A DNA stretch of 20,418 bases, taken from UHGV virus genome UHGV-0101751; one strand, 5' to 3'. A program made the translations under genes and the position numbers. Below, piece by piece: positions 17,449-20,364 of this stretch (positions are counted from its first letter, which is position 1; every line of letters begins with the position of its first letter). The notes under the pieces are model-generated. The model was not told the DNA's origin and ran no database searches. It worked only from the letters and a program-made list of their open reading frames with translations. Source of the stretch: a virus.

Positions 17449-17486
17449 GGGGTTTGAGGGCCAATGATGTAAAAAACCACGCTAAG
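17449..17486 (-). repeat. Tn3-family 38-bp terminal inverted repeat
   Basis: GGGGTTTGAGGGCCAATGATGTAAAAAACCACGCTAAG begins with the Tn3-family GGGG and ends ACGCTAAG. The tnpA stop codon lies inside it, as in Tn3-family elements. Confidence 0.75.
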
Positions 17487-20364
17487 GAGGTAATTCATTG
17501 TTTAAATTGAGATTTAACGGCCTCAATTCCCCCTTCATAATATCCTCCGGTAGTGTGAACGTATAATGTCCCAGCATGTTGATATGACCATGCATCAGAG
17601 GCGAAAGCCGCGCGATATGTTCATCTTCTGGCCCTTCCCCAGTGCTACGCAGGTGCGACAAGGCTTCCTGCATATAAAGCGTATTCCACAGCACCACTGC
17701 GTTTGTCACCAGACCCAGCGCACCCAACTGATCTTCCTGCCCCTCGCGGTAACGTTTTCTGATCTCACCACGCTGACCGTAGCAAATGGCTCTTGCCACG
17801 GCATGGCGACCTTCGCCCCGGTTAAGCTGTGTTAGGATCCTGCGGCGATAGTCCTCATCATCAATATAGTTGAGAAGATACAGTGTCTTGTTAACTCTTC
17901 CGACCTCCATTATTGCCTGAGCAAGCCCTGACGGTCGGGTACTTCTCAATAGCGATCGAATGAGTTCTGACGCATGAATTGTGCCCAGCTTCAGCGAACC
18001 TGCAACCCGCATCATCTCATCCCAGTGGCTTTCGATTTTAGAAAGGTCAACACAACCCCGAGCCAGTTCGTCCAACGCCCCGTAATTCGCTGCTTTGTCA
18101 GCCCGCCAGAACACCGCCTCACCAGCATCCGCCAGACGAGGTGAAAATTGGTATCCCAGTAGCCAGAACAAGCCAAAGATAATGTCACTGGTACCTGCTG
18201 TGTCCGTCATGATTTCAACCGGGTTTAGTCCCGTTTGTTGCTCAAGTAGTCCCTCCAGCACAAAAATGGAATCCCGCAGCGTTCCAGGGATCACTATGCC
18301 ATGAAAACCCGAATATTGGTCAGAGACAAAGTTGTACCAGGTAATGCCGCGCCCTGAACCAAAGTATTTTCTGTTGGGGCCAGAATTCACCGTTTTCACT
18401 GGTGTGACAAAACGCATACCATCAGCGGAGGCCACCTCACCGCCACCCCAGTATCCTGCCAACGCTAACGAGGACTGAAAATCAACCAGCCGCGCATTGG
18501 CGCTGACCAGCGTTTCTGCTCGGATGTAGTTCTGTTTCACCCAGCTCAGGCGATGGCGGGTCAGTGCAGGGATATTGTGCTTGATCAGCGGCTCATGTCC
18601 GATATTGCAGGCCTCAGCCAGCATCACCGCACACAGGCTTATATGCAGATCCTGCGCGCGGGCACCTGACTCGCTGACATGGCTGAATTCACGGGTGAAA
18701 CCCGTTCTGGCGTCAATCTCAAGCAACAGTTCTGTCAGGTCAACGGGTGGGAGCAATTGTCTGACTCGGCTGCTCAGTCGTATCAGCGCCGGTGGCTCAT
18801 CCAATTTATCCAGGCTGCTGATGGTCAGCGAAGGATGTTTACCTTCATTGCAGATGTCTACGGCGGTATTGCGGTCAAAACGTGATGCCACCGTTTTCCA
18901 GGTTTCATCCAACCGTGCTGCCAATTGCACCGATGCTTTACTGCCATTGGTGGGGTGACCCAATGCCCGGCACACTGGAACCCGCTGCGCCTGCCATTCC
19001 TCCCCCTGAAGAAGTTTTTGGCGCGGATCACCCCAACGATCGCTGTTTTCCAACCAGATGTCACGACGGCGTAGCGCATCCTGAAGTCGCTCCAGCAGAC
19101 ACAACGAGTAACCCGCTCGCTGTATCCGACCTTCAGCATCGTACACCAGGCGTTTCCAAGGGCCTGAAATGATATGCTCAGGTGCATCGTCCAGGATCCG
19201 TTTTTTCGAGCCGTTTAGCTCTGCCAGGTAATGGATGGCCGCGAGGGTATGTTCACCGTCTGGGGCCGCCCGGAAGTGCAGATCGCGCAGTAGTGCGGGC
19301 AAAAAACGCCTTACCCGTCCGTACTGCTCCACCATTTCATCCTGAAAGTTTGTATCCTGGGGGCGGGCCAGTTCATTCACTTTTTCCACTGACTCTGCCA
19401 GTCTGGCGACAGGTACACTGCTGAATATGGTCTTTCGCAGCAAATCATCACCAGTATCTTCATCAAGTAAAAGTGCACATGCCCGCGCCAGCAACAACGC
19501 CGCACGGTCAAGATCCTTGAGCGTCCTAAGTCGCTTTTTCTGCCCGGTTTTCTTCGCCTCCCTGGTAATATTGAGGATCAGCATATCCAGCACGTCAACG
19601 GCCTCGTCCAGCGCCGAGATTTCTTGCGCTTTCACGAACGCGGTAAGGATAGCCAGCCGCCGTTCTTCTGGCATTCTGCTGATATATTTCACCGATGCCA
19701 TTCCGGCATAGCGTGCCAGGTTGCGGAGCTGTATGGCAGGCAGCCCAGTGAAATTCAGGCAGGAAAATTCCAGGCTGCGCAGGCGAGTGTAACGTTCAAG
19801 TGCTTCAGTGAATGCGGGGCCGCTGATAGTGACAGGGCCTCTTTTTAGGTGCTCCATCACTGAGAGTCGCTGTCCTTCGGGGATTTCAAGTAACCCAGCC
19901 AGTTGTGCGGCCTGCCAACGGTTTGGCAGCGCGGCCAATTTTCGCCATAAGCGGCGGGTCGCACGCTCACGGATTTCACCAATGACCCTCGTAAGGGTGG
20001 ATGCGGCTGGCAACAACACTTTATTTTGAAGCAACCACGCGGTGGCAAAATCGAACATCAGTCCGGGGCGTTCATTACTGAGCCATGCACGAGTATACAG
20101 CAATCGCTTCAGTCTGAACGACCACGGGAAATCACCGAAATCATGATAGCTGTAGTGCTGCCTGATAAGCCCGTGGTGCTCCCAACGTGTATTTTCCCTT
20201 TGAGCATAGCGGGAGATGATCTCTGGATAGCGGATGTTAAGTTGCCTTGCGACATAAAACTGGACACCGGGCGGTATTTGCATGAGATCGGGCAAGAAGG
20301 TTCCCAGAAAGCGGGCGGTTGTGAGTTGAAGGGCAATCCCCAACCGGTTATGCCTGCCCCTATG
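17482..20364 (-). pseudogene. tnpA: Tn3-family transposase gene, 5'-truncated by IS26
   Basis: The translation resembles Tn3 TnpA as I recall it. The in-frame coding sequence continues upstream of the track ORF start to the IS26 boundary at 20364 with no native start codon, so roughly the first 40 codons are missing. Confidence 0.85.

Follow-up and report, generated by a model that had tools for sequence, protein, structure and literature searches.

A Tn3-family transposon remnant, very probably of Tn5396, truncated by IS26 in an SSU5-type phage-plasmid

Structure of the locus

The window, i.e., the whole 20,418-bp stretch of the virus genome UHGV-0101751 that was analysed, carries one end of a Tn3-family transposon cut short by IS26. 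An intact 38-bp terminal repeat, GGGGTTTGAGGGCCAATGATGTAAAAAACCACGCTAAG, lies at positions 17449–17486 on the plus strand and is an exact match to the left inverted repeat (IRL) of Tn5396 in plasmid pEC22. It is present as a single copy, against zero expected from sequence shuffles. In keeping with the Tn3-family hallmark, the repeat is about 38 bp long, starts with GGGG and contains the end of the transposase gene tnpA, whose stop codon (17482–17484) falls within the IRL; the window holds only this one repeat. In the complete pEC22 copy, the IRL has an inverted partner (IRR) that matches it at 37 of 38 positions, and TTATA stands on both sides of the element as a 5-bp duplication, which bears out the original prediction that the 38-bp sequence is a Tn3-family repeat.

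The last 5 bp of the phage-plasmid backbone before the transposon end are GGTTA (17444–17448), as had been read from the sequence, and all coordinates of the original prediction were correct. At the insertion point, the uninterrupted relatives pLAO18 and p1585m1_B read ...CTTGGGTTA|AAAGCGG (after the break, their stretch is also given as AAAGCGGCG), and the window reads ...CTTGGGTTA|GGGGTTTGAGG, so that the break in the backbone coincides with the first base of the repeat. This exact break fits real transposition into GGTTA, and the comparison with the uninterrupted relatives indicates that GGTTA is the true junction between backbone and transposon. GGTTA is presumably the target site; the window has this left flank only, the right transposon end being deleted. 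Just before the insertion site, the intergenic backbone at 17300–17410 contains two short inverted repeats recognised by eye, AATAGGGCAT...ATGCCCTATT and TAACAGAATGG...CCATTCTGTTA, which may serve the phage-plasmid as terminators or for protein binding.

The truncated tnpA gene occupies positions 17482–20364 on the minus strand and comprises codons 43–1002 plus the stop, as seen from its open frame, its alignment with WP_000718520.1 and its identity to Tn5396. Translation gives 960 sense codons and no stop, so the frame is open up to the IS26 boundary, as proposed originally. The transposase domain PF01526 (DDE_Tnp_Tn3) is found in the window product by Pfam with an E value of 4e-153, and the N-terminal DUF4158 domain is matched from position 38 of its 165-position profile onwards. 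The intact protein, WP_000718520.1, is 1002 aa long and identical to the window product over residues 44–1002; it scores 1125.7 bits with the NCBIfam model transpos_Tn3 (cut-off 500 bits), which together with the DDE_Tnp_Tn3 domain of the remnant upholds the Tn3-family assignment. WP_000718520.1 is annotated in pSYM6 and pEC22, where a divergent gene for a 193-aa serine resolvase adjoins. The same tnpA gene is present at ~100% nucleotide identity in many plasmids and extends there past the point at which the window switches to IS26.

At that point, the intact sequence reads CCCCTACG|TAGGTTGATG and the window reads CCCCTATG|GGCACTGTTGCAAA, which places IS26 between tnpA codons 42 and 43. One base differs beside IS26: position 20363 is T in the window and C in Tn5396 and both closest plasmids, making the first retained codon His instead of Arg43. 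The 14-bp IS26 terminal repeat, GGCACTGTTGCAAA, starts at 20365, and the first 54 bp of the element (IRR end, sequence GGCACTGTTGCAAAGTTAGCG...) fill positions 20365–20418 on the minus strand, with the transposase gene tnp26 on the minus strand reading towards tnpA. Both the alignment of intact and window sequences at the junction and the annotation of the plasmid pB379_2 agree with the earlier naming of IS26 as the truncating element. At the other window edge (1–54, plus strand) stands the IRR end of a further IS26 copy in inverted orientation; window positions 1–55 are the reverse complement of 20364–20418. Two inverted IS26 IRR ends thus bound the 20.3-kb segment that holds the remnant, and in matching plasmids an IS26-family transposase gene is annotated directly outside both window edges.

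The start codon, the promoter and the first 42 codons (126 bp) of tnpA are absent from the window, and because of this the truncated gene is best regarded as a pseudogene. The missing N-terminal codons had been predicted, and the alignment places the first residue of the window product at residue 43 of the 1002. A consensus scan of the minus strand upstream of the remnant found no promoter-like site within the window, and no IS26 hybrid promoter that could drive the remnant was seen in it. Independently, RefSeq annotation by PGAP labels this 2883-bp stretch a pseudogene in pB379_2 ("incomplete; missing N-terminus"). It is very unlikely that tnpA is no remnant but a functional transposase gene, complete by way of an alternative start in the window. 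Such a reading could draw on a 953-aa open reading frame with a TTG start at 20343–20341 (span 17482–20343) and on the DDE catalytic domain, which is whole in the window product. However, the identical copies in many plasmids run 42 codons further to yield the 1002-aa protein, the TnpA of Tn1000 is of equal length (1002 aa) and can be aligned with it from the first residue, the DUF4158 match lacks its beginning, and homology ends exactly at the IS26 end. The lack of a promoter-like site upstream of the alternative-start frame and the PGAP verdict also speak against it, and the second terminal repeat is absent whatever the tnpA start. A complete protein with an alternative start, named in the original prediction as evidence that would overturn it, is excluded by the WP_000718520.1 alignment.

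Identity of the element and comparison with its relatives

The element is almost certainly Tn5396, a Tn3-family transposon already described, of which the window would hold the left 2916 bp; the name rests on later papers and the pEC22 record. No observation spoke against this identification. Elhai, Cai and Wolk reportedly gave the first description of Tn5396 in 1994. Window positions 17449–20362 are 100% identical (2914/2914) to bases 1–2914 of Tn5396 in pEC22 (NC_025058). According to PMC5052281, which cites Elhai et al. (1994), Tn5396 was defined in the Escherichia coli plasmid pEC22 as a "cryptic" transposon with the order IRL-tnpA-tnpR-orf6-orf7-IRR. The pEC22 record, from which the element was rebuilt, gives a length of 7517 bp, with 38-bp repeats and the TTATA duplication. 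On the pEC22 map, tnpA lies at transposon bases 34–3042 (complement), tnpR at 3201–3782 and orf7 (690 aa) at 5247–7319, and orf6 (SIR2-type) ends at 5250. The complete transposon encodes a 193-aa serine resolvase (PF00239, E value 3.6e-39).

The window shares with the pEC22 transposon the 38-bp IRL and tnpA codons 44–1002 and differs from it by the single SNP at the truncation point and by its extent, only 2916 of 7517 bp. It is without tnpA codons 1–42, res, tnpR, the two passenger genes orf6 and orf7, and IRR. A BLAST of the full element against the window matched bases 1–2914 and found no other part of Tn5396, in line with the earlier statement that the res site and resolvase are missing. 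Because the cointegrate resolution module (res and resolvase) is absent, the window holds a remnant and not a functional Tn3-family member.

The better-known relatives Tn1000 (gamma-delta) and Tn5403, both often found beside IS26, were weighed as the source of the remnant. The first 18 bp of the repeat had been recognised as those of Tn1000, and comparison with plasmid F confirmed both this and the divergence that follows. The tnpA-proximal repeat of Tn1000 in plasmid F is GGGGTTTGAGGGCCAATGGAACGAAAACGTACGTTAAG; counted on the two strings, it matches the Tn5396 repeat at 29 of 38 positions, and all nine differences fall at positions 19–34. Tn1000 shares the divergent tnpA/tnpR layout, and its TnpA, also of 1002 aa, is 85% identical over all 1002 residues. 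However, its resolvase is only 48% identical to that of Tn5396 and its passenger genes differ, making Tn1000 a relative and not the same element. Tn5403 is likewise a Tn3-family transposon, has no resistance genes and is often IS26-truncated, commonly so in Klebsiella plasmids. The pKpQIL transposase that PGAP names as Tn5403 is only 30% identical, and in Tn5403 tnpA and tnpR have the same orientation, unlike in Tn5396. Set against the 100% nucleotide identity to pEC22 Tn5396, an origin from either relative has hardly any probability left. A literature search with the repeat sequence returned only a Tn1000-type repeat.

The passenger genes orf6 and orf7 of Tn5396 (pEC22 transposon bases ~3860–7319; pSYM6 6241–9692), deleted from the window, are identified by PADLOC as a SIR2 and HerA pair (SIR2 PDLC04079, E value 3.6e-155; HerA PDLC04098, E values 2e-245 to 7e-250), and the Pfam models SIR2_2 and DUF87 match them as well. 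The literature search found no link of SIR2-HerA with Tn3 or Tn5396. Judged by these profile matches, complete Tn5396 seems to carry an anti-phage defence system.

Occurrence and plasmid context

Sequences of this transposon end are common, and the particular junctions of the window are rare. The terminal 80 bp of the IRL side are found in 819 plasmids of PLSDB. Of 5426 complete E. coli genomes, 133 contain them, and in almost all cases they lie on a plasmid. Only two PLSDB records have the exact tnpA/IS26 junction, namely E. coli pB379_2 and the Shigella flexneri STLE3 plasmid, and the latter alone has the exact backbone/IRL junction. In plasmids of E. coli and Klebsiella, most full-length copies of Tn5396 share one context, beside a higB/higA toxin-antitoxin pair with the flank GGTAA, which suggests that they go back to one insertion spread with its surroundings rather than to repeated transposition. 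Many BLAST matches overlap the flank of the window because of chance extension, as these common copies have GGTAA. A shared 5-bp flank was therefore rejected as a sign of shared insertion, the alignment giving GGTAA in the higBA context versus GGTTA in the window.

IS26 is common in enterobacterial resistance plasmids. Remnants of Tn5396 next to IS26 have been published (PMC5052281, PMC5725488, PMC5034289): in p2246-CTXM (Shigella boydii), pKP1814-3 (Klebsiella pneumoniae) and pP10164-2 (Leclercia adecarboxylata), a piece of Tn5396 abuts IS26 at the edge of a resistance region. Their breakpoints and host plasmids differ from those of the window. The p2246-CTXM remnant retains the opposite end (tnpR-orf6-orf7-IRR). 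The 2.9-kb remnant of pP10164-2 consists of IRL and truncated tnpA, as in the window, but is only 96% identical and frameshifted. An analogous truncation of Tn5403 by IS26-mediated deletion has also been described (PMC5142620). An IS26-truncated Tn5396 remnant is thus an already known kind of object, one that IS26 activity generates routinely.

Among complete records, the closest is the IncFIB plasmid of S. flexneri STLE3 (169,932 bp), which matches 20,416 of the 20,418 window bases. Besides position 20363, the only other difference is at window position 5194 (A versus G in STLE3); with these two differences, the window comes from a very close relative and not from that exact record. The original prediction pointed beyond the right-hand IS26 for the rest of the transposon. 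No further part of Tn5396 is present in the whole STLE3 plasmid, the one other match being an unrelated Tn3/Tn2 tnpA at ~70%. The backbone resumes there 1371 bp past the insertion point but ~51 kb away. The intervening region contains ars, Tn3/blaTEM-1, tet(A), a class 1 integron, sul3, ttr and several IS26 copies.

To the left of the repeat, the backbone (window 55–17448) is that of an SSU5-type phage-plasmid; over the terminase and portal region, its identity to Salmonella phage SSU5 is 96.9%. According to the annotation of the matching plasmid, it also encodes a DnaB-like helicase, a DNA ligase and a DEAD/DEAH helicase, as well as a GNAT/DUF1778 toxin-antitoxin pair at 8444–9242. In pB379_2, a 2851-bp ISKpn19 unit has inserted immediately beside the Tn5396 IRL and duplicated the 9 bp CTTGGGTTA (pB379_2 locus 3150–6009), showing that this plasmid derives from a window-like arrangement. 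Besides the ISKpn19 transposase, the unit encodes a recombinase and a pRiA4b ORF-3 family protein.

Both window edges lie 54 bp inside IS26 and the matching plasmid is rich in repeats (nine or so IS26 copies), but an assembly artefact from collapsed IS26 repeats at the tnpA junction can be ruled out, since two independent complete plasmids, from S. flexneri STLE3 (Hong Kong) and E. coli B379 (Hangzhou), have the same junction bar one SNP, and the extra ISKpn19 insertion by the repeat in one of the two means that they are not copies of one assembly.

The remnant forms one edge of a large accessory region built by IS26 in an SSU5-type phage-plasmid, a region that in the closest complete plasmid carries resistance and metabolic genes over ~51 kb. 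The insertion of Tn5396 at GGTTA is the earliest recognisable event at this edge. The value of the observation lies in correct annotation and plasmid history only, and it opens no new biological question; the name Tn5396 prevents mislabelling as "Tn3-like", Tn1000 or Tn5403.

Residual function and origin of the remnant

What remains is transposon bases 1–2916, i.e., one terminal repeat and a tnpA gene without promoter, start codon and first 42 residues. Because these parts and the second repeat are absent, the remnant is predicted to be inert and unable to transpose by itself. The N-terminal domain DBD1 is the key determinant of repeat recognition in Tn3-family TnpA proteins, and in the TnpA of Tn4430 it contacts repeat positions 21–36 (PMC9579193). 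The differences between the Tn5396 and Tn1000 repeats (positions 19–34) fall in the region read by the Tn4430 N-terminal domain. By analogy with that protein, the missing 42 residues would belong to the domain that recognises the transposon ends.

There is a slim chance that the remnant is not wholly inert. By extrapolation from Tn3-family biology, the repeat of the window might be bound in trans by the TnpA of a complete Tn5396, which would make the phage-plasmid immune to new Tn5396 insertions or permit rare one-ended transposition dragging adjacent DNA with it. Alternatively, read-through from tnp26 could in principle feed a start within the frame, the TTG of Leu50 or the ATG of Met70, to yield an N-terminally shortened protein, which might interfere with full-length TnpA. 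Both ideas draw on the intact repeat and open frame only.

The present arrangement probably arose as follows. A complete Tn5396 would have inserted at the intergenic GGTTA of an SSU5-type phage-plasmid, and IS26 would later have come to sit in tnpA between codons 42 and 43. Everything to the right, comprising 126 bp of tnpA, res, tnpR, orf6, orf7, IRR and no less than 1.37 kb of backbone, would have been lost, most probably through IS26-mediated adjacent deletion or recombination between IS26 copies. Both this order of events and the deletion mechanism are our reconstruction from the present arrangement.

The sequences flanking IS26 bear on the mechanism. In the closest plasmid, the truncating copy has CCCCTACG on one side and CTGATGAG on the other, and no IS26 flank in that plasmid repeats either of these or their complements, as would an 8-bp IS26 duplication. 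This fits IS26-mediated adjacent deletion or recombination between IS26 copies, not simple insertion. An inversion signature at the tnpA junction was also sought among the IS26 flanks of the closest plasmid, and none was seen. Seen from within the window, an adjacent deletion looks the same as recombination between IS26 copies or an insertion with later rearrangement. The inner 8-bp flanks of the two IS26 ends of the window, CTTTTATC and CCCCTATG, are unrelated to each other, so that neither a simple composite-transposon insertion nor a single inversion is indicated. Elsewhere in the STLE3 plasmid, the flanks of two IS26 copies, GCCAGACG and CGTCTGGC (5073–5080 and 29488–29495), are mutual reverse complements, a signature of IS26-mediated inversion of a ~24-kb cellulose-synthesis (bcs) segment.
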